DNA from: Candidatus Bathyarchaeia archaeon
Lineage (GTDB): Archaea > Thermoproteota > Bathyarchaeia > TCS64
Length of the DNA stretch: 64,000 nucleotides
NCBI GenBank assembly: GCA_050014495.1
Contig: JBEKDF010000005.1
Coordinates: 43,782 to 107,781 of the forward strand
Direction: 5' to 3'
Below the pieces are notes generated by a model that was not told the origin of the DNA, did not search any database, and worked only from the letters and a program-made list of their open reading frames with translations. Positions 3,239 to 22,217 of this stretch are shown here, in pieces. How positions within the stretch are numbered: the first letter of the stretch is position 1; each line of letters starts with the position of its first letter. The position numbers and the translations under genes are program-made.

Positions 3239-3754
3239 ATGAGGATACTTGCATTGATCGGGAGCCCCCGTCGGGGAGGGAACAGTGACCTACTCGTAGA
3301 CGCTGCCCTAAGGGAGGCTGCGAAGCGTGGGCACCAGGGTGAGAAGCTCTACCTCTACGAATACGAAATGAAGCCCTGCGTTGACTGCCGCGCCTGCAAG
3401 CAGGAGGAGATGATATGCGTGTTAAAGGACGACCTACCCAAAATCTACAAGAGGATAGACGCCGCTGACGCCCTCGTTCTCGCCACCCCAATCTACTGGT
3501 ACGGCTCAACAGCCCAGATGAAATTACTAATCGATAGACTACGCCCATACATCGTTAACCGCCGCCTCGAGGGAAAGAAAGCCTACCTTATCGCTCCCTC
3601 CGAGGAGGGGCCAAGCGCTTGCGGGCCTCTGGTTGACAGTCTAAAGATGAGTTTCAATGCCGGGGAGGCGCTAGTAACTGCCAACGAGAAGGGTGAGGTT
3701 GCGAAGAAGCCGGAAGAGCTAGAGAAGGCGCGCGGCCTCCTTTCGGGACTCTAG
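3239..3754 (+). CDS. Iron-sulfur flavoprotein/flavodoxin family protein
   Basis: GSPRRGGNS FMN loop, CxxCxxC-x5-C, TPIYWY. Confidence 0.88.
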   Translation: MRILALIGSPRRGGNSDLLVDAALREAAKRGHQGEKLYLYEYEMKPCVDCRACKQEEMICVLKDDLPKIYKRIDAADALVLATPIYWYGSTAQMKLLIDRLRPYIVNRRLEGKKAYLIAPSEEGPSACGPLVDSLKMSFNAGEALVTANEKGEVAKKPEELEKARGLLSGL

Positions 3755-6315
3755 CGTGTAAAGAATGCTCCGAGCCCCGTTTGTCGTGGGCGCCCGACGA
3801 GTTCGTCGAAGCTCATGTCGAGGGCGTCGAGCACCTGTTCGAAGGTACCCTCGAGGTACTCCTCCATCTTGCCTATGTCAACGTCCTTCTTGCTCGCAAT
3901 CTGCACGGGTTTGACTCCATCTTTCGTGACTACGTAACTGATTATGTCCCCTTCCTTAAGCTCGTAGCCCTGCTCCTCGAGCATCCTACCCGCCCTGACG
4001 TGCTGGGGCGTTGTGTCGTAGCCTGCGAGGCCCTTTCCGAGCATCATGCTGAAGGCGACCTCCTCTATGTCAAACTCACGGTTCTTGAGGCGGTGGTTGA
4101 TGGTAGTAACGAGGTTCCTGATCTCCTCCTTAGCGAGGGGGAACTCTTCGGGACCCTCGACGTTGCTGAGGATATTAGTGAGTTTGATGAAAGCATCCTT
4201 AAGTATTGGTGGAATGTGGCGCTTCTTCCCCGTTAGTCCCTTTATATCGAGTTTACCGTCGGGGTAGACACCGAGGTAGTTCTTCTTCCTGCTGCTGAAT
4301 ATCGCATATCGGTACTGTTTGTCGACGTCGAGGTCGATACCAAGTTCCGCGTCTGCCCAGCCAACGAGGCCTTCGATCTGCTCTTTCGACGGCTTCTCTA
4401 GAAAGACTGAATCCGTGTCGCCATAGATGACCTCTATGCCAAGTTGTTGACTCTTGTCGACCGCCTTGGTCATCGCATAGCGACCGACGGCGGCGGTGCT
4501 CTCCGCCAGCGGGGGGCAGTAAAGGGGGAAGCTCTCGGAACCGAAGACCCCATAGCTGGCATTAAGGAAGACCTTGAGAGCCTGTGTGACGACGTCGTAA
4601 TACTGTCGCTCCTCGACGCTGAGGGTCTTATCCTTACTGAGGGGCTTATACCACTGGACCCTTAGGTCGCGTAGGCTACCAATAATGAGGCTCGTCATCC
4701 CGCGATTCTTCTTGCAGACCCAATGGGGGGTGCCGGGGACAAGGTTGTCCCTGCACTCTGGGTGGTTGCAGAGGATGGTGTCGTAGCTTAGGTTCCAGTT
4801 CCTGATGGCGCTGGGGTAAAGGCTGGCGAAGTCGCAGACGACGACACCGAAGTGTACGCCGGGTTTGGGGTCCCTAACTATTGCTCCCTGGTACTTCTTG
4901 CCCTTAATTATGCTAGTGGTGCTCGTCTGCCCCTTAACGTCTAGGATATCTTGGGTGTTGGGGATGAGCCAGCCTCGCCTACGATGTTCCCACTCCATGA
5001 GAGATAGTATCCACCGGCTCACACCGTTTCGTGTGACATCCTCCATTATCATTTTGCTGATTCGTGTGAGTAGAACTATAAGATTCATGGCGAGGTCGTG
5101 GTTGAAGGCGGTTAGCTGGTAGGTGAGGTCAGCATCATTTAGGCAGTACTGGGCAAGGTCCTGTATGTTCGCTGTCGTGATGTCTCCAATCTGAAGCTTT
5201 TCCATGTTGAGGAGGTTCTTGGATATCTCATTAAGTGTGTTTTCCCTGTAGCGGTTTCCGAAGGCGTAGCCCTGTATGCTCCTGTTCATGAAGAATTTGT
5301 AGAGATCGAGGTGGACGCCATTTCTGAGGAAGGCGAATCTTCGTCCCATGACTATGGGGTTCTCGGAGTCGGGGATACCGAGGTTCTTCGCCCTGTTACG
5401 CATGTAACGGAAGTCGAAGTCGTCGCCGTTGAACGTGAGGACGACGGGGTACTCGTCGAGGATCTGGAATGTCTCCCTGATTATGTCACGCTCGTCAGTG
5501 TAGACTTTGACTTCCGCGCCAAGGACGACGGGTGTGGGAACGTCATGGTCAGTGTCATTAAGGACGATTATCCTGCGGAAGCCATCGCTGGCTGAAAATC
5601 CTACGGCTGTGATTGGTTCCTGTGCCTCATTGGCATTAGGAAGCCTGTTCTGGACACTTGGACGGACCTCGATGTCGATCGCGACGCGCCGCAGCTTGGG
5701 AACTGGGCATTGTAGGAGGCGGGTCCACTCCTTCATGTTACCCCTGAACTCGGGCTCAATTTTCTCTAGGATATTGTCAATCTTCGCTTCCGTCTCCATA
5801 TCGAGGGTGTAACCGGCATCGACTAGGTTGCCGTTCTCGATCCTGTATGGCATTCCGGTGATGAGTTCGCGGTCGTAGATGTAGCACTGGTAGTACCTGA
5901 TTCGACTCTCCCAGCTGTCCCCAATGATACTCCTTATAGGTTGACCCCTGCCACCGCCTATGCTGAGAGGGTCCTTAGCGACGACCTTCGTAACCTTGAT
6001 CTCCTGGTCTGCGAGTGAGTCATGTTTGGGGACCTCCTCCATGAAGAAGTAGCCCTCGTGGCGGAGTAGGCGCTGGTTCTTCTCAAGCTCCTTGATAGGC
6101 TCCCTGCTTAAGCAGTATGGGAGGTGGCTCGTGTTATCGTACCAGAGGTAGACCTGCTGGCTCACGGGCTCGTAAAGTCGTAGGTACGCCTTCTGCTCCT
6201 CGCCATCGTAGCCAGCGCTGAGGAGATAGCTTGTGGGAAGGTTGTCAGGAGCAATCCGTCCCTTTGGTCTAATCTCCTCCTCGCTCTCGTCCATGATGAA
6301 GTCAGGAGCAGCCAT
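3751..6315 (-). CDS. polB1: Family B DNA polymerase (PolB1 type) with C-terminal PIP box
   Basis: DIE exonuclease motif, DFASLYPS, KVFLNASYG, YGDTDS; ends QTGLGAFF; no intein. Confidence 0.95.
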   Translation of the reverse strand: MAAPDFIMDESEEEIRPKGRIAPDNLPTSYLLSAGYDGEEQKAYLRLYEPVSQQVYLWYDNTSHLPYCLSREPIKELEKNQRLLRHEGYFFMEEVPKHDSLADQEIKVTKVVAKDPLSIGGGRGQPIRSIIGDSWESRIRYYQCYIYDRELITGMPYRIENGNLVDAGYTLDMETEAKIDNILEKIEPEFRGNMKEWTRLLQCPVPKLRRVAIDIEVRPSVQNRLPNANEAQEPITAVGFSASDGFRRIIVLNDTDHDVPTPVVLGAEVKVYTDERDIIRETFQILDEYPVVLTFNGDDFDFRYMRNRAKNLGIPDSENPIVMGRRFAFLRNGVHLDLYKFFMNRSIQGYAFGNRYRENTLNEISKNLLNMEKLQIGDITTANIQDLAQYCLNDADLTYQLTAFNHDLAMNLIVLLTRISKMIMEDVTRNGVSRWILSLMEWEHRRRGWLIPNTQDILDVKGQTSTTSIIKGKKYQGAIVRDPKPGVHFGVVVCDFASLYPSAIRNWNLSYDTILCNHPECRDNLVPGTPHWVCKKNRGMTSLIIGSLRDLRVQWYKPLSKDKTLSVEERQYYDVVTQALKVFLNASYGVFGSESFPLYCPPLAESTAAVGRYAMTKAVDKSQQLGIEVIYGDTDSVFLEKPSKEQIEGLVGWADAELGIDLDVDKQYRYAIFSSRKKNYLGVYPDGKLDIKGLTGKKRHIPPILKDAFIKLTNILSNVEGPEEFPLAKEEIRNLVTTINHRLKNREFDIEEVAFSMMLGKGLAGYDTTPQHVRAGRMLEEQGYELKEGDIISYVVTKDGVKPVQIASKKDVDIGKMEEYLEGTFEQVLDALDMSFDELVGRPRQTGLGAFFTR

Positions 6316-14844: not shown

Positions 14845-16224
14845 ATGCAAGGCGTAATAGGCGTCTATTCTAAGGAGGATGTTGGGACGAAGAGCCTCTA
14901 CACCCTCTACGGCGTCCAGCATAGGGGGCAAGAGAGTGCTGGAGTCGCCGTGGCTGGGGACAGGAGCCTCAGGGTCTGGAGTGGGACGGGCCTCGTCTCA
15001 CGCGTCTTCGACGAGCGTTATACCCCCTTCAGCCACCCCGACGACTACGCTGTAATTGGCTGCGCCTCGGGGGAGAGTATAGAGGGCGGCCTTCCGCCAT
15101 ATGTCCTCGAGACCGAACGATACAAGATAGCAATCACCCTCGATGGCTATATCCCGAAGAAGCAGGGTGAGTCGAATGAGAATGCGTTCCTCAATATCCT
15201 CGAGGAGAAGCTACAGGTGACGAGTATAATCCCAGCTATGCGGGAATCAATGTGGAGCCTACCCACAGCCTACTTCAGCCTCGTCGCTGTCGCCCTGGAC
15301 AAGAAGGAGGAGGAAAGCACGCTCATCGCGGTACGTGACCCAAGGGGAGTGAGGCCTCTTCATGTCGCTCGTACGAAGACAAAACTCTTCCTCGCCTCCG
15401 AGTCTGCGCCTGTAGACGTCCTTGAGGAAATGGGTGAGTCTTTCGACGACAGGAGGGACGTTGTCCCTGGCTCGATGATTTACATGAACAAGGAGGGGAT
15501 CAGGGAAGAGCAGGTAATAGAGCCTCACCCCGCTCACTGCGCCTTCGAGTGGGTTTACTTTGGCCGCCCCGACTCCGTGCTAGAGGGGAAGAGTGTACAT
15601 GTCGCCCGCAAAAACCTCGGCCACGCACTAGTCAAGACACACGGCCTCAAGAGACTGTACAGCGTCGAAAAGGGACCTAAGAGCTACCTAGCTATCATTC
15701 CCGTCCCAGATTCCGGGAGAAGCGTCTGCACCGGAGTAGCCGAGGGCCTTGGGGTCCCTGCTGACGAGGGCATAATCAAGAACGCGTACCTTGGCCGTAC
15801 ATACCTCATCTACGATCCCTCCTTCAGGAAGACTGCTTCTGACCTGAAGCACAACGTGATACGTGCAACGGTGGGCGGGAAGAAGATAGCAATCTGCGAC
15901 GACAGCATAGTCAGGGGAACCGTTAGCGAGTCGGTCGCGAAGAGCCTCCGCAAGGCCGGCGCCACAGAGGTTGATTACCTAGTCAGCTATGCCCCCATAG
16001 TTAACCCATGCTTCAGCGACCCGGCCGACAAGCCTCTCGCTGCGAAGCCTTTCAAGGGGAAGAGCATCGAAGAGATCGGACGCCTCGTTGCTAAGGGGCT
16101 CCCCAGCATCGATCACATCCTCTACAACACACCTGAGAACGTAGTCGAGGCCATCGGCTTACCTCTTGAGAAGATATGTACATTCTGTATAACTGGCGTC
16201 AACCCCTTCAGGAAGGTCGAGTAA
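14845..16224 (+). CDS. purF: Amidophosphoribosyltransferase-like protein lacking the N-terminal catalytic Cys
   Basis: QHRGQES, RDPRGVRPL, CAFEWVYF, PVPDSG, DDSIVRGT, CTFC; starts MQGVIG. Confidence 0.85.
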   Translation: MQGVIGVYSKEDVGTKSLYTLYGVQHRGQESAGVAVAGDRSLRVWSGTGLVSRVFDERYTPFSHPDDYAVIGCASGESIEGGLPPYVLETERYKIAITLDGYIPKKQGESNENAFLNILEEKLQVTSIIPAMRESMWSLPTAYFSLVAVALDKKEEESTLIAVRDPRGVRPLHVARTKTKLFLASESAPVDVLEEMGESFDDRRDVVPGSMIYMNKEGIREEQVIEPHPAHCAFEWVYFGRPDSVLEGKSVHVARKNLGHALVKTHGLKRLYSVEKGPKSYLAIIPVPDSGRSVCTGVAEGLGVPADEGIIKNAYLGRTYLIYDPSFRKTASDLKHNVIRATVGGKKIAICDDSIVRGTVSESVAKSLRKAGATEVDYLVSYAPIVNPCFSDPADKPLAAKPFKGKSIEEIGRLVAKGLPSIDHILYNTPENVVEAIGLPLEKICTFCITGVNPFRKVE

Positions 16225-18029: not shown

Positions 18030-18310
18030 ATGGAGTCGTTTATCCACACGTTCTCGATTAAGATTCTTCTAGTACTTCTAAAGTCAAGGAGGCGGATGAC
18101 GCTGGAGGAGCTAGTCAAGGAGATGGGTGAACAGCACGGGAGCATAACCCACACTATCGATACTGTGAGAAGCAAGACTCGTCGCAGCTTTCTAGGCGAG
18201 GTGCACCACACGAGTAGGATGTCTACCTCACATCCATGGGCGGACGTGTTGAGAAGCTGAAGGAGATTGAGGACCTAGTGGGATGGACGAAGCTAGGCAG
18301 CATTTCCTAA
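18030..18310 (+). pseudogene. Probable frameshifted winged-helix regulator
   Basis: N-terminal HTH-like (KILLVL..MTLEELVKEMG); a second frame continues VYLTSMGGRVEKLKEIE (LTxxG wing) to TAA 18308-18310. Confidence 0.45.
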
Positions 18311-18870
18311 TACTGAATGCCCACAGTCGAGACGAAGGACTTCATCGCCTTAACCTCTTTGACCTCGTTGACGAAGTCGGCTCTGTCAATAAGTGAGTTA
18401 GGCGCGTATCTCCCGGTCAAAATGGCGTCCATCGCTGGTGGGAGTTTCTCGAGTAGGGCGATCACATCCACGCTCTCGACTATTCCCATATGAGCCGCGA
18501 GGCAAACCTCGTCAAGGATGATCAACTCGGGTGGATGATCTCCTAAGATTACCTCCTCGGCATACTTCAGCGCTTTCTTAGCTGCTACTTTGTCCTCCTC
18601 CGTTATACTTCTTAGGCTAGCCTTGAAGCCGCCCACATCGACATCAGTGCCAGCCTTTCCCATCTTTATCCAGCCGGGTCTACCAAACTGCTTAATCTCG
18701 TAGAGGGGAGCCAGGGTCTTAGCAGCCTTATACTCACCCGTCTTTTTCCAGTACTTTAGGAACTGGATAACGACTACGTGATGGCCATGGCCGAGGGATC
18801 TGAGGGCTAGGCCGAGGGAGGCGGCGGTCTTGCCTCCGCCTGTGCCGTAGTAGAGATATATATGTCCCAT
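18307..18870 (-). CDS. cobO: ATP:cob(I)alamin adenosyltransferase (CobO/BtuR)
   Basis: YYGTGGGKT, QFLK, ILDE, LTGR, ends GIQY. Confidence 0.9.
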   Translation of the reverse strand: MGHIYLYYGTGGGKTAASLGLALRSLGHGHHVVVIQFLKYWKKTGEYKAAKTLAPLYEIKQFGRPGWIKMGKAGTDVDVGGFKASLRSITEEDKVAAKKALKYAEEVILGDHPPELIILDEVCLAAHMGIVESVDVIALLEKLPPAMDAILTGRYAPNSLIDRADFVNEVKEVKAMKSFVSTVGIQY

Positions 18871-18875
18871 GGTTG

Positions 18876-20981
18876 TCACCCACAGACCTCGCAGCCCTCG
18901 ACGGGACGGCCACCGGCGTACTCAGCCTCAGCAGTTGCAACCTTCTCCTCGCCTCGGGCTTCAACGCCGAGGTTAAGGACTTGAGCGCCCTTGCTCCCGT
19001 ATCGATATATGGTTACTCCCTTGCAGTGGAGATCGTGGGCGAGGCGGTAGACACTCTCCACGTCGCCTATGCTAGCATCTTCGGGGAGGTTGACTGTCTT
19101 GGAGACGGCGTTCTCCGTGTACTTCTGCCAGGCCGCCTGTATCCTAACATGCCACTCGGGTTTTATATCATGAGCGGTGACGAAGAGGCGACGAATGTCC
19201 TCAGGGACGCCATTCACATCCTTGATGGTGCCATGGCTCACAATCTTTTCGAGGCTCTCGCCACCGTAGAAGCCGCGGTTCTTCGCCATCTTTTCAAAGA
19301 TGGGATGGAGTTCGAAGAGACGAGCTCCCTCGAGGACGTGGCGCATAAAGGCGATGGCGAAGAGTGGCTCGATGCCCGAAGAGCAACCAGCGATGATACT
19401 TATTGTGCCTGTGGGGGCGATGGTGGTCACTGTTGCGTTCCTACGGGCCCTGTACTTGCCCTTCCAGATGCTCCACTCGAAGTTGGGGAATGAGCCGCGC
19501 TTAAGTCCTAGCTCCTCAGAGGCATGCGCTGATTCCTCCTCAATGAACTTCGCTATCTCCTCGCCGATTTCTACAGCCCTCTCTGAGTCGTAGGGAACTC
19601 CAATGAGGATGAGGAGGTCAGCGAATCCCATGATCCCGAGGCCAATCTTCCTATTCGCCTTTGTGATTGCATCGGTCTCCTTGAGGGGATAGGGGTTTAC
19701 ATCTATGACATTGTCTAGGAACCTGATGGCAGTCCGTATCGTGGCGCGGAGTTTCTCCCAGTCGATTGAGGCGTCCACCTTTAGCATCTTGGAAAGGTTG
19801 ATGCTGCCGAGGTTGCAGGACTCGTAGGGAAGGAGGGGTTGCTCTCCACAGGGGTTCGTCGACTCCATCGCGCCGACCCTAGGGGTCGGGTTGTACCTAT
19901 TCACCTCGTCTATAAAGACGATGCCGGGGTCCCCGCTCCTCCAAGCGTTGTCGATTATTCTGTCCCATACATAGCGGGCGCTGAGCCGCTTCGCCGACTT
20001 TCCCGTCCTTGGGTTGATGAGATCGTAGTCTTGGTTTTTCTCTACGGCCTCCATAAAGGCGTCGGTTACAGTGACGCTTATATTGAAGTTGGTGAGGACG
20101 CCAGGGCGAGTCTTGGATGTCACGAATTCGATGATGTCGGGGTGGTCGACTCGGAGGATTGCCATCATGGCACCGCGGCGGCGGCCCCCTGCTTTTATGA
20201 CCTCGGTTGTGGCGTCGAATATCTTCATGAAGCTGACGGGGCCGGAGGCGACTCCCATCGTAGTCTTGACGACATCACCGGAGGGGCGGAGCCTGCTGAA
20301 GTCGAAGCCGACACCCCCACCCGTCTGTTCAATGAGGGCCATATTCTTTAGGGTAGTAAAGATACCCTCGAGGCTGTCCTCTACGGGTAGAACGTAGCAT
20401 GCACTAAGGGCGAAGCCCGTCTTCGTCCCTGCATTGAAGAGTGTGGGGCTATTGGGGATGAACTCCAGCCTACTCATGACTCCGTAGAATTCTTTCGCAC
20501 CCGCCTCTGGGTCGCCACCGTAGATCTTGTCAGCAGCGGCGATTGCCTTGGAGACCCTCCAGAACATGCCAGTAGGCGTCTCTATAATATCACCCTTCTC
20601 GTCTTTGAGGAGGTACCTCTTCTCCAGCACTTCGATGGCGTTGATGCTGAGTTTTGGCTCGTCTAGGATGCCCAGCTTCCCCCTGAGGATGCGTAACTCC
20701 GCCTTCTTCAGCCGATATGATTGATAGTCCTTCGCAACGGGATCGTGTCCCGTCTCGCGCAGAGTCTCTACGACGAGGTCCTGTATAGCCTCGACTGTCG
20801 GGGTCCCAGCAGGGTAGAGCCTATTCAGCTCCTCGACGACTCTGTCACTAATGACCTTCGCGGTTGCGCCGTCGCTACCCTCGACAGCGAAGAGAGCTTT
20901 ATAGATCGCGTTGGTTATCTTCCCCTGGTCGAAGTCCACGACCCTTCCATCCCTTTTTCTGACGCTCTTTACGGTAGACAC
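18876..20981 (-). CDS. nrdJ: Class II (adenosylcobalamin-dependent) ribonucleotide reductase with ATP-cone
   Basis: VRKRDG ATP cone, PNSPTLFNAG, LSAC, TNPCGEQ, SCNLGS, APTGT, C-terminal CxxC; no intein. Confidence 0.93.
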   Translation of the reverse strand: MSTVKSVRKRDGRVVDFDQGKITNAIYKALFAVEGSDGATAKVISDRVVEELNRLYPAGTPTVEAIQDLVVETLRETGHDPVAKDYQSYRLKKAELRILRGKLGILDEPKLSINAIEVLEKRYLLKDEKGDIIETPTGMFWRVSKAIAAADKIYGGDPEAGAKEFYGVMSRLEFIPNSPTLFNAGTKTGFALSACYVLPVEDSLEGIFTTLKNMALIEQTGGGVGFDFSRLRPSGDVVKTTMGVASGPVSFMKIFDATTEVIKAGGRRRGAMMAILRVDHPDIIEFVTSKTRPGVLTNFNISVTVTDAFMEAVEKNQDYDLINPRTGKSAKRLSARYVWDRIIDNAWRSGDPGIVFIDEVNRYNPTPRVGAMESTNPCGEQPLLPYESCNLGSINLSKMLKVDASIDWEKLRATIRTAIRFLDNVIDVNPYPLKETDAITKANRKIGLGIMGFADLLILIGVPYDSERAVEIGEEIAKFIEEESAHASEELGLKRGSFPNFEWSIWKGKYRARRNATVTTIAPTGTISIIAGCSSGIEPLFAIAFMRHVLEGARLFELHPIFEKMAKNRGFYGGESLEKIVSHGTIKDVNGVPEDIRRLFVTAHDIKPEWHVRIQAAWQKYTENAVSKTVNLPEDASIGDVESVYRLAHDLHCKGVTIYRYGSKGAQVLNLGVEARGEEKVATAEAEYAGGRPVEGCEVCG

Positions 20982-21059: not shown

Positions 21060-22217
21060 CTACTTCGAGAAGAGATCGAGAGGTGTCTGCCCCGTCATCT
21101 TCGACTCCTTGATTAGGAAGTCGCGTAACTCGCCTTCGTCCTTGAAAATCCTAGTGCTGTACCACTCGAAAAATGGACTGGGTTCGTAAGGGTAGTAGAC
21201 ATAGACGAGCTTGGCGAGGCTCTTAGCGTAGACCATCTCGCACATGACGCCGGCACTGATGCTTTGGCGTGGGTGGTAGACGACGACCATATGGCTGTTC
21301 TCTATAATCTTGTAGTCTCCGTCGATTATCTGGAACCTGAGGTTCTTTATAGCGGCCTCGACCTCGGCGGTGTCGAGTATGACCTCCTTAGGGCCATCGT
21401 GGTACTGGATACGTAATGGTATCCTGCTTGGGCGGGGTTCCCCAAGGTCGATAGCTGAATTGAGGGCATCGCGCCAGCACTCGACTATCTCCCAATCCTT
21501 GATCATTGATGGATCGTAGACTATGTAATAGTCCTTTAGGGCAGAGGCGAATTTAGTGAATTTCTTGAATGAGTCCTCGTCCTCGCCAGTGATTGGGTGG
21601 CTTAGGTAGAACTTCTCTTTGCGGGGGTTGAATATGATGTCACGGAGGAAGTCAGGGCCGTTCTCGTAAGCGACTATCTGCACCTCTTTGCGAGGGGTGA
21701 AGCTTCGTGCCTGCTCGTAGACGTCGGCCATCTCCTCACGGCGCCAGTTGGCTATCTCGCCAAGTGTATAATGGTGCTCCATCCACTGGGGGTCCTTGGC
21801 GAGGCGCTCCCTGACCCTGATTATATCGTCGAAGACGACGACGAAAAGGTCGGGGTCTAAGCGCTCCACATCGCCACGGTCGAGGCCCTTGAATCGGTTG
21901 CCCTTCCACTCGAAGTGATGGGGAGTGCTAATTATATTGACGCCACCGCGTTGTCTGATTTCGTTCTCTATGCGTGTGACTGCTGCTTCACGTAGAGCGT
22001 CCATCCTATCGGGTTGGCTGTCATAGAAGTCGAGGATGTTGAGCTTACTCAGATTCATGCCCTCAAGACGGGCCTGCTCGACTATGTACTCGAATAGATG
22101 ATAGTAGTGGAAACTCACCCTCTCCCTCATCTTGGTGAGCATCTCGTCGCGACCGTTCCCCGGCGGACCGGTGCAGATGATGACGCGCTTCATGGACATA
22201 GCTGAGACATAGTCCAA
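21060..22217 (-). CDS. Adenylate-kinase-like plus nucleoside 2-deoxyribosyltransferase-like fusion with C-terminal PIP-like motif
   Basis: GPPGNGRD P-loop variant and GL..VERLDPDLFVVV (AdkA-like); FYLSHPI ... SAGVMCEMVYA ... PSPF (NDT/DNPH1-like); ends QTPLDLFSK. Confidence 0.65.
   Translation of the reverse strand: MDYVSAMSMKRVIICTGPPGNGRDEMLTKMRERVSFHYYHLFEYIVEQARLEGMNLSKLNILDFYDSQPDRMDALREAAVTRIENEIRQRGGVNIISTPHHFEWKGNRFKGLDRGDVERLDPDLFVVVFDDIIRVRERLAKDPQWMEHHYTLGEIANWRREEMADVYEQARSFTPRKEVQIVAYENGPDFLRDIIFNPRKEKFYLSHPITGEDEDSFKKFTKFASALKDYYIVYDPSMIKDWEIVECWRDALNSAIDLGEPRPSRIPLRIQYHDGPKEVILDTAEVEAAIKNLRFQIIDGDYKIIENSHMVVVYHPRQSISAGVMCEMVYAKSLAKLVYVYYPYEPSPFFEWYSTRIFKDEGELRDFLIKESKMTGQTPLDLFSK

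Follow-up and report, generated by a model that had tools for sequence, protein, structure and literature searches.

A predicted deoxynucleotide N-hydrolase fused to a probably degenerate adenylate-kinase-fold domain, with a PCNA-binding-type tail in one clade of Bathyarchaeia

The window analysed here, a stretch of 64,000 nucleotides from Candidatus Bathyarchaeia archaeon (genome G000), carries on its minus strand a gene for a fusion protein whose first half resembles archaeal adenylate kinase (AdkA) and whose second half resembles nucleoside 2′-deoxyribosyltransferases (NDTs) and the hydrolase DNPH1, followed by a C-terminal tail similar to the PCNA-interacting protein (PIP) motif. The open reading frame (ORF), 21060..22217 (-), encodes 385 amino acids (aa) when read from TTG 22217, and residues are numbered from this codon throughout. 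Homologs begin MSxRRVI at the position of M7, which makes ATG 22199 the likely start. The motifs quoted in the original prediction, which was made from the letters of the window alone, were all recovered from the translated ORF: GPPGNGRD (17-24), FYLSHPI (203-209), SAGVMCE (321-327), PSPF (346-349) and the C-terminus QTPLDLFSK. The features of the gene are given below, where row counts refer to a conservation alignment of the query with 120 representatives of at least 320 aa (121 rows, the 30 shorter of 150 representatives having been dropped).

21060..22199 (-), fusion gene, from likely start M7, 379 aa
22143..22169 (-), altered P-loop GPPGNGRDE (AdkA: GxPGxGK[TS]T), from close-homolog alignment and AdkA comparison
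21624..22193 (-), AdkA-fold domain, residues 9-198, likely catalytically degenerate, from fold, profile and residue comparison
21099..21623 (-), NDT/DNPH1-fold domain, residues 199-373, with a ~60-residue insert (~236-296), from VIA-align
21606..21608 (-), Tyr204, putative equivalent of DNPH1 Tyr24, the deoxyribose selector; 121/121, aligned to the first-strand Tyr of 7o62
21315..21317 (-), Asp301, opposite D80, the catalytic acid of DNPH1, in the alignment to 9da1; 120/121
21237..21257 (-), S321-x-G-x-x-x-E327, putative phosphate-binding Ser and nucleophile Glu (DNPH1 S98/E104); S321 112, G323 121 and E327 121 of 121
21177..21179 (-), Ser347 of the SPF loop, putative DNPH1 S128′ equivalent; 103/121, aligns to Asn of 7o62
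21066..21089 (-), PIP-type tail Q377-T-P-L380-D-L-F383-S384, from conservation, pLDDT <50 and PCNA co-fold

An AlphaFold2 model was built from 66 close homologs and compared with 48,161 PDB representatives by VIA-align. Its mean pLDDT was 89.5, with values <50 at residues 1-7 and 376-385 alone. Residues 9-198 matched Aeropyrum AdkA 6ln3 (Z 20.2, rmsd 2.2, 185 aligned), AdkA also giving the top Foldseek matches, and the best structural match of residues 198-373 was the NDT 7o62 (Z 16.9, rmsd 2.1, 128 aligned), other matches being further NDTs, MilB 4ohr (Z 13.2) and Rcl 2khz (Z 12.1). Sequence matches of the single protein were weak (PF13207 1e-7; PF05014 below cut-off), and against the AdkA model NF003122 it scored 18 bits, where the cut-off is 155. 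The family profile identified the kinase half as homologous to AdkA (E 9e-20). The protein, as modelled, is an AdkA-fold domain fused to an NDT/DNPH1-fold domain, and both fold calls of the original prediction were borne out by the structure search.

DNPH1 has the catalytic triad Y24/D80/E104 and holds the phosphate of its substrate with S98 and S128′, according to the accessible part of PMC10603095. In the C-domain profile, D301, S321 and E327 lined up with residues of human DNPH1 (9da1) and of the CMP N-glycosidase 4jen; taken one by one these alignments are weak (E 0.02-0.6), and it is the fold match that supports them, while the equivalence of Ser347 to S128′ was drawn by way of 7o62. P348, next to Ser347, was conserved in 116/121 rows. 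Where the fusion protein reads SAGVMCE/PSPF, the nucleoside transferase 7o62 reads DDGVAFE/NNPM, so that the Asp and Asn used for 5′-OH binding are replaced by S321 and S347; in NDT hydrolases the residues of the 5′ pocket are uncharged, as stated in the accessible part of PMC12884076. MilB, in the same portion of PMC10603095, uses Phe17 for ribose, shifts its preference to deoxyribose upon the change F17Y, and has no second phosphate-binding Ser. The original prediction named Tyr, SxGxxxE and a Ser loop for DNPH1 and MilB alike, which for MilB needs correction in the Tyr and the second Ser; at the selector position, where MilB-type enzymes have Phe, Tyr204 is invariant. Where DNPH1 has its base-recognition region (H56, R30 and E55 for 5-hydroxymethyl-dUMP) the fusion protein has the ~60-residue insert, and this insert and the conserved surface motifs DW241-242, W248 and KNLRFQ are unlike DNPH1. 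Since Tyr204, Asp301, Glu327 and the two Ser are conserved and match the DNPH1 set, the C-domain is likely a 2′-deoxynucleoside-5′-monophosphate (dNMP) N-hydrolase, as judged from its residues.

The N-domain was compared at the AdkA residues, using 20 AdkAs from other Bathyarchaeia against 88 distant, 20 sister and 30 tail-clade rows of the fusion. Many positions fixed in 20/20 AdkAs were replaced in the fusion: in the P-loop K>R and [TS]T>DE, and elsewhere R58>K, R62>L, Q72>M, Q76>R/H, DTH>STP, E129>F, R139>L and R167>Y. The LID Arg pair of AdkA was also absent, M146/E147 standing in its place in the query (a gapped region); LID Arg138/140 are described as critical in M. igneus adenylate kinase in the accessible part of PMC10883716. 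P-loop glycines and R138 were retained. The fusion protein lacks, then, the P-loop [TS]T, the AMP-site Arg, Gln and DTH, and the LID Arg pair by which a catalytic AdkA can be recognised. A separate bacterial-type Adk is encoded in the window genome (G000:C35:17888-18445, L115; PF00406 E 2.6e-50), in which no AdkA scored over the cut-off. The original prediction had the enzyme sanitising or supplying dNMP or dNDP; the supply option was not supported, and provision of dNDP is unlikely because most residues for phosphoryl transfer are gone from the N-domain and a separate Adk is encoded elsewhere in the genome. The N-domain is probably a pseudokinase, with a nucleotide-binding or oligomerising role. 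Replacement of a housekeeping AdkA by the fusion was rejected, given the bacterial-type Adk of the window genome and the genomes of family f16, which carry both AdkA and the fusion. As a separate observation, the window's family seems to use bacterial-type Adk, and most other families of Bathyarchaeia show a stand-alone AdkA.

The tail was examined among 120 close homologs listed out of 264 found. In these matches it reads QxPLDx(F/Y), with Q377, L380, D381 and an aromatic residue at 383 each in 120/120 and P379 in 118, so that Q at PIP position 1, an aliphatic residue at 4 and an aromatic residue at 7 were present in every match listed. The archaeal PIP consensus is QSTLDSFF, and the tail stands in the same register (PMC4929162, accessible part); 43% of confirmed PIPs lack one aromatic residue, by the figure in the accessible part of PMC6881253. 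In the window genome NreA, PolD DP2, a Hel308-like helicase and RusA likewise end in single-aromatic motifs. PolB1 of the window, 3751-6315 (-), was said to end in QTGLGAFF; the motif is present and the true end lies two residues further, at QTGLGAFFTR. Mean conservation was 0.80 over residues 372-383, 0.33 over residues 7-10 and 0.26 at residue 385. The pLDDT of 376-385, quoted above, is a proxy for disorder.

Conservation of the tail in homologs, named as a check in the original prediction, held for close homologs and failed family-wide. In 78 GTDB loci the tail was present in 50, absent in 25 and unreadable in 3, and only 6/150 representatives have QxxLxxF within the last 30 residues, 4 of them from the tail clade itself. 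On a quick IQ-TREE tree (71 hand-picked full-length rows, tail columns included, a careful search being unfinished) a single gain explains the tail (SH-aLRT 99). By this phylogeny, the tail is a single gain in one clade of Bathyarchaeia; a family-wide PIP was rejected, as sister and distant homologs are without the tail.

We co-folded residues 354-385 alone with the single PCNA detected in the genome (G000:C45:17457-18206), alongside three controls, none of them a PIP-like decoy peptide. The score was 0.73, against 0.08 for the best control, with a partner pLDDT of 70-73, and the runs shared 100% of contacts; the mark applied is reached by 116/157 solved and 2/215 mismatched pairs. In the predicted complex the tail lies against PCNA residues 40-47, 125-129, 227-228 and 243-250, and L380, F383 and Q377 contact 40-47, 227-228 and 243-248, which we take to be the usual PIP pocket. 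Co-folding with PCNA had been named beforehand as a check, and it was passed as predicted docking. Binding of the tail to PCNA is rather probable. Two further tails were seen in the window genome: a DUF2797 protein (G000:C17:12861-13784, L210) ends in QVGLESFLKK, a near-canonical PIP that makes it a candidate and unlisted PCNA partner, and a RusA-family nuclease (G000:C34:26445-26873, L211), a Holliday junction resolvase homolog, ends in the PIP-like QINIEEFTKQ.

A profile search for the family returned 649 representatives at 50% clustering (E <= 0.001), of which 71 reached 1e-30; the weaker matches may include single-domain relatives. The fusion was matched in 66/401 sampled Thermoproteota genomes (E <= 1e-28), and in the window's own taxonomic family 51/64 genomes gave a strong match, two more at E ~1e-4 being left uncounted. 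The family also occurs in bacteria, and Atlas clusters at 0.96-0.97 take in members from Planctomycetota and Chloroflexota. Database labels call it ‘adenylate kinase’ or ‘AAA ATPase’, which are mislabels. Variants with a tandem duplicated kinase-like domain reach ~600 aa (P0156, P0165, P0176, P0187, P0203 and P0240), and the distant homolog P0260 carries a C-terminal NUDIX domain. Fused forms of 750-2140 aa were not found in 7989 candidates scored, which is weak evidence, and a Pfam scan of 30 longer representatives gave no noteworthy extra domain. No description of the fusion turned up in titles and abstracts, in a library that lacks the majority of subscription journals; the family may be named in supplementary tables of annotations such as the arCOG lists, which this search did not cover.

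Some members are placed oddly or touch the family from outside. An Asgard (Borrarchaeum) copy (L050) nests within the tail-less Bathyarchaeia clade, through transfer or mis-binning, and a Patescibacteria-labelled contig (L018) nests within the tail clade with the same neighbours and is likely mis-binned. In other Bathyarchaeia (L161-L164, e.g. L162:6113-7240) an NDT-like domain whose loop reads SPW is joined to a glycerophosphodiester phosphodiesterase, a second and independent NDT fusion. The window genome has a second, stand-alone NDT-family gene (L118:1357-1857, on G000:C24), which scores 85 bits with PF05014 and reads DSGTASE, so that Asp takes the place of Ser at the 5′ position; from these residues it is likely a nucleoside-type enzyme.

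Two genes lie directly downstream of the fusion in the window, both on the same strand, nrdJ beginning 78 bp downstream of the fusion gene:

18876..20981 (-), nrdJ, class II ribonucleotide reductase with ATP cone, TIGR02504 718 bits (cut-off 400)
18307..18879 (-), cobO, corrinoid adenosyltransferase, PF02572, overlapping the nrdJ stop

The co-directional nrdJ-cobO pair pointed out in the original prediction is real in the window and is not a general linkage. In the counts that follow the genomes are kin and not independent cases, and many loci end early. nrdJ was directly downstream of the fusion in 13/78 loci and convergent in one more, and with the window nrdJ as query it was found in 16/64 family genomes, a general nrdJ-cobO linkage being rejected on these figures. 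It was found in 11/16 own-genus genomes besides G000 and in 2/30 of the largest sister genus, and the two genes were adjacent in 11/11 own-genus genomes that have both, G000 included. On these counts, nrdJ-cobO was added at the level of the genus, and the order DUF6899-fusion-nrdJ-cobO of L009 and L012 is intermediate.

In the older arrangement the order is NUDIX > DUF6899 > fusion, and an ABC transporter and a metallophosphoesterase lie opposite, facing these genes. NUDIX was present in 17/50 tail loci and DUF6899 in 35/78 loci. The NUDIX protein is MTH1-like (best PDB match MTH1, E 7e-24), and in 17 of the 25 family genomes where both NUDIX and fusion were found it lay no more than 5 kb upstream in the same orientation; in 6 it was on another contig and in 2 far away. 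In the sister loci without the tail, the neighbour is an HD-domain gene with weak SAMHD1-type matches (16/25) or a HAD gene. The NUDIX neighbour, the NUDIX domain of P0260 and nrdJ support the supposed link to nucleotide metabolism. DUF6899 (L012:5727-5990 and 34 other loci) has 87 aa, three predicted helices and an invariant end YRR..PYED.KI...GDV; its model gave no Foldseek match at E <= 0.001, it has only two phage homologs, and it is possibly a partner subunit.

Other observations on the neighbourhood stand apart. A small glutaredoxin-like gene (weak PF00462) lies divergently upstream of the fusion in several non-sister lineages (12 loci, some of them overlapping; L120, L121, L137, L138, L140, L142, L143, L146, L148 and L150). 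The window also carries a PurF-like protein (14845-16224, +; TIGR01134 224 bits, below the cut-off of 350), which begins MQGVIG and is without the N-terminal Cys that glutamine amidotransferases use; to go by its sequence, it may be a degenerate or ammonia-dependent form. A promoter and terminator scan, which relies on a bacterial consensus, stayed at chance level.

Based on these data, we propose, with a probability of roughly 40%, that the protein is a dNMP N-hydrolase fused to an AdkA-fold pseudokinase and serves as a sanitiser, which in one clade would be tethered to PCNA through its tail. In this scheme Glu327 would attack C1′ of a dNMP, Asp301 would protonate the base, Tyr204 would exclude ribose, and Ser321 and Ser347 would hold the 5′-phosphate, giving free base and deoxyribose-5-phosphate as in DNPH1. 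The role of the enzyme would be to destroy non-canonical or surplus dNMPs and so prevent their rephosphorylation. Polymerase proofreading and repair nucleases release dNMPs; at the clamp they could be one source of substrate, the other being damaged dNTPs cut by the MTH1-like NUDIX encoded upstream in most relatives. The N-domain would bind nucleotide and/or build the oligomer and regulate the hydrolase, and the tail would hold the enzyme at PCNA in the tail-bearing clade. A bolder version, in which the lineage recruited a pseudokinase-regulated DNPH1-like hydrolase to the clamp so that damaged dNMPs are destroyed where PCNA-bound nucleases release them, downstream of the MTH1-like enzyme, is more tentative, and we would rather bet against it than for it.

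Several observations speak against the proposal. The C-domain scores 20.4 bits with the Pfam NDT model PF05014, under its cut-off of 28.8. The tail departs from the canonical PIP at position 8 (S 78, N 23, T 12, other 5 and end of the protein 2; S/N/T in 113/120), where a second aromatic residue is absent, and at position 3, which is Pro. The core, residues 11-371, is equally conserved (mean 0.77), and the tail could serve oligomer packing. A relaxed QxxLxxF in the last 20 residues occurs in 26/2865 ORFs of the genome, with 20 expected, which is chance level; it is because of its conservation, not its mere presence, that the tail exceeds chance. The tail has no counterpart in the 25 tail-less Bathyarchaeia loci of the 78 or in any distant full-length homolog examined, and the enzyme can do without it. 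The co-fold score may reflect memory of solved PIP-PCNA complexes. For the N-domain, methanococcal AdkAs too are without the P-loop Lys (GVGGTT), and R23, R134, R138, R159 and R160 are invariant in the clade, so the domain may yet have kinase activity. As to the neighbours, the commonest overall is an ABC transporter ATPase (42/78 loci), outside Bathyarchaeia (in other Thermoproteota) they vary and are mostly not nucleotide-related, and in the window genome neither the MTH1-like NUDIX was found with the query used nor DUF6899, for which a control of the same search likewise found nothing.

In a first rival reading, the protein is a dNMP N-hydrolase that serves routine catabolism of nucleotides or the balance of their pools, and the tail is not a functional PIP and is a clade-specific element for packing, for capping the active site or for another partner. 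In some NDTs the active site receives an aromatic residue from the C-terminus of the adjacent subunit, most homologs are without the tail, the relaxed motif is no commoner than chance, position 8 is polar, and the frequent ABC transporter, metallophosphoesterase and HAD neighbours fit nucleotide uptake and breakdown. However, Q, L, D and the aromatic residue are invariant in PIP register in all 120 matches listed while the flanks vary, the monomer model leaves the tail without structure, and its predicted docking in the canonical PCNA pocket stands well above the controls. We consider this reading unlikely, if the most serious of the alternatives.

The protein might also be bifunctional: its N-domain, its active site rebuilt, would still phosphorylate (d)NMPs and salvage the normal dNMPs, and its C-domain would destroy the others or exchange their bases in the manner of DmtZ, supplying precursors near the fork. 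The phage enzyme DmtZ shows that an NDT-family dNMP transferase exists, as reported in the accessible part of PMC12884076. Within the clade R23/D24 and the glycines of the P-loop do not vary, H99 and R76 are kept across the wider family, and nrdJ adjoins the fusion in every genome of the same genus with both genes; the missing P-loop Lys has its methanococcal precedent, and fusions of NDT with other kinase families recur (Atlas rows below 0.9, leads only). Against these, the Mg-binding Thr/Ser is gone, as are Arg, Gln and His of the AMP site and both LID Arg; P-loop positions past Gly are poorly conserved family-wide, the genome has its separate Adk, and other lineages keep AdkA beside the fusion. 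We regard a working kinase of this kind as improbable.

Weaker still is the idea that the substrate of the C-domain is not a free dNMP and that the N-domain acts as its sensor. Ribonucleotides, nucleotides with a signalling or cofactor function and the end nucleotide of a DNA strand offered by PCNA would be examples of such substrates. The insert and the conserved surface motifs differ from DNPH1, TIR/SLOG-like domains share the fold at lower Z, cobO and Moco genes are among the neighbours, and archaeal PCNA partners of the core set work on DNA or RNA (PMC4929162, accessible part). Against this reading stand the invariant Tyr, which argues for deoxyribose, the two Ser, which argue for a 5′-monophosphate, the NUDIX linkage and NUDIX fusion, and the lack of a PADLOC match for the window protein. 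An anti-phage defence system was likewise rejected, since PADLOC 2.0 matched the window protein to 0 defence families, 2/10 other proteins giving weak unrelated matches (E ~0.007).

Among known systems, the proposed pseudokinase-hydrolase fusion is closest to DNPH1/Rcl, the 5-hydroxymethyl-dUMP N-hydrolase (9da1, 2khz; PMC10603095, accessible part), in fold (Rcl Z 12.1), in the putative Tyr/Asp/Glu triad and two phosphate-binding Ser, and in a likely pool-sanitising role; it differs in its AdkA-fold domain and PIP-type tail, and in the ~60-residue insert where DNPH1 has a base-recognition helix and loop. The CMP N-glycosidases MilB/BcmB (4ohr, 4jen) share fold (Z 13.2) and SxGxxxE, whereas MilB has Phe17 and no second Ser where the fusion has Tyr and Ser, and no antibiotic cluster surrounds the fusion. 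With the nucleoside 2′-deoxyribosyltransferases (7o62, 1f8x) and with DmtZ (PMC12884076, accessible part) it has in common the fold (7o62 Z 16.9), Tyr, Asp and Glu, but the Asp/Asn that bind the 5′-OH in nucleoside enzymes are Ser321/Ser347, and it stays below the PF05014 cut-off. AdkA (6ln3, 1nks, 6pjw) resembles the N-domain in fold, homology, P-loop glycines and an Arg aligned to the adenine-stacking position, and differs in that the fusion has most catalytic residues replaced and F102, W104, D130, W158, R159 and E162 newly conserved.

The tail resembles those of the archaeal non-core PIP proteins NreA, NucS and TIP (C-terminal QxxLxx-aromatic), being lineage-restricted as in TIP; by the accessible part of PMC4929162, those partners act on DNA or inhibit PCNA, and none described there is an enzyme of soluble nucleotides. 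Human MTH2/NUDT15, a nucleotide sanitiser reported bound to PCNA in human cells (PMC5739673, accessible part), is a precedent in function, but it is a NUDIX protein whose fold is unrelated to the fusion. From these comparisons, the fusion would work like DNPH1, identity as DNPH1 not being implied, and its tail fits the relaxed and not the canonical PIP definition.

The proposal assigns a testable chemistry to an unannotated family. If its bolder version is correct, the protein would become the first member to be characterised in a family that extends over Thermoproteota and several phyla of bacteria. It would also be an archaeal PIP partner acting on free nucleotides rather than DNA, where the core archaeal PCNA partners reviewed in the accessible part of PMC4929162 all act on nucleic acids. 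The tail-bearing and tail-less sister clades, together with homologs in complete genomes of other Thermoproteota families, offer a natural comparison for local sanitisation at the clamp. Moreover, if the tail binds PCNA, nucleotide-pool control would be placed at the replication fork in archaea.

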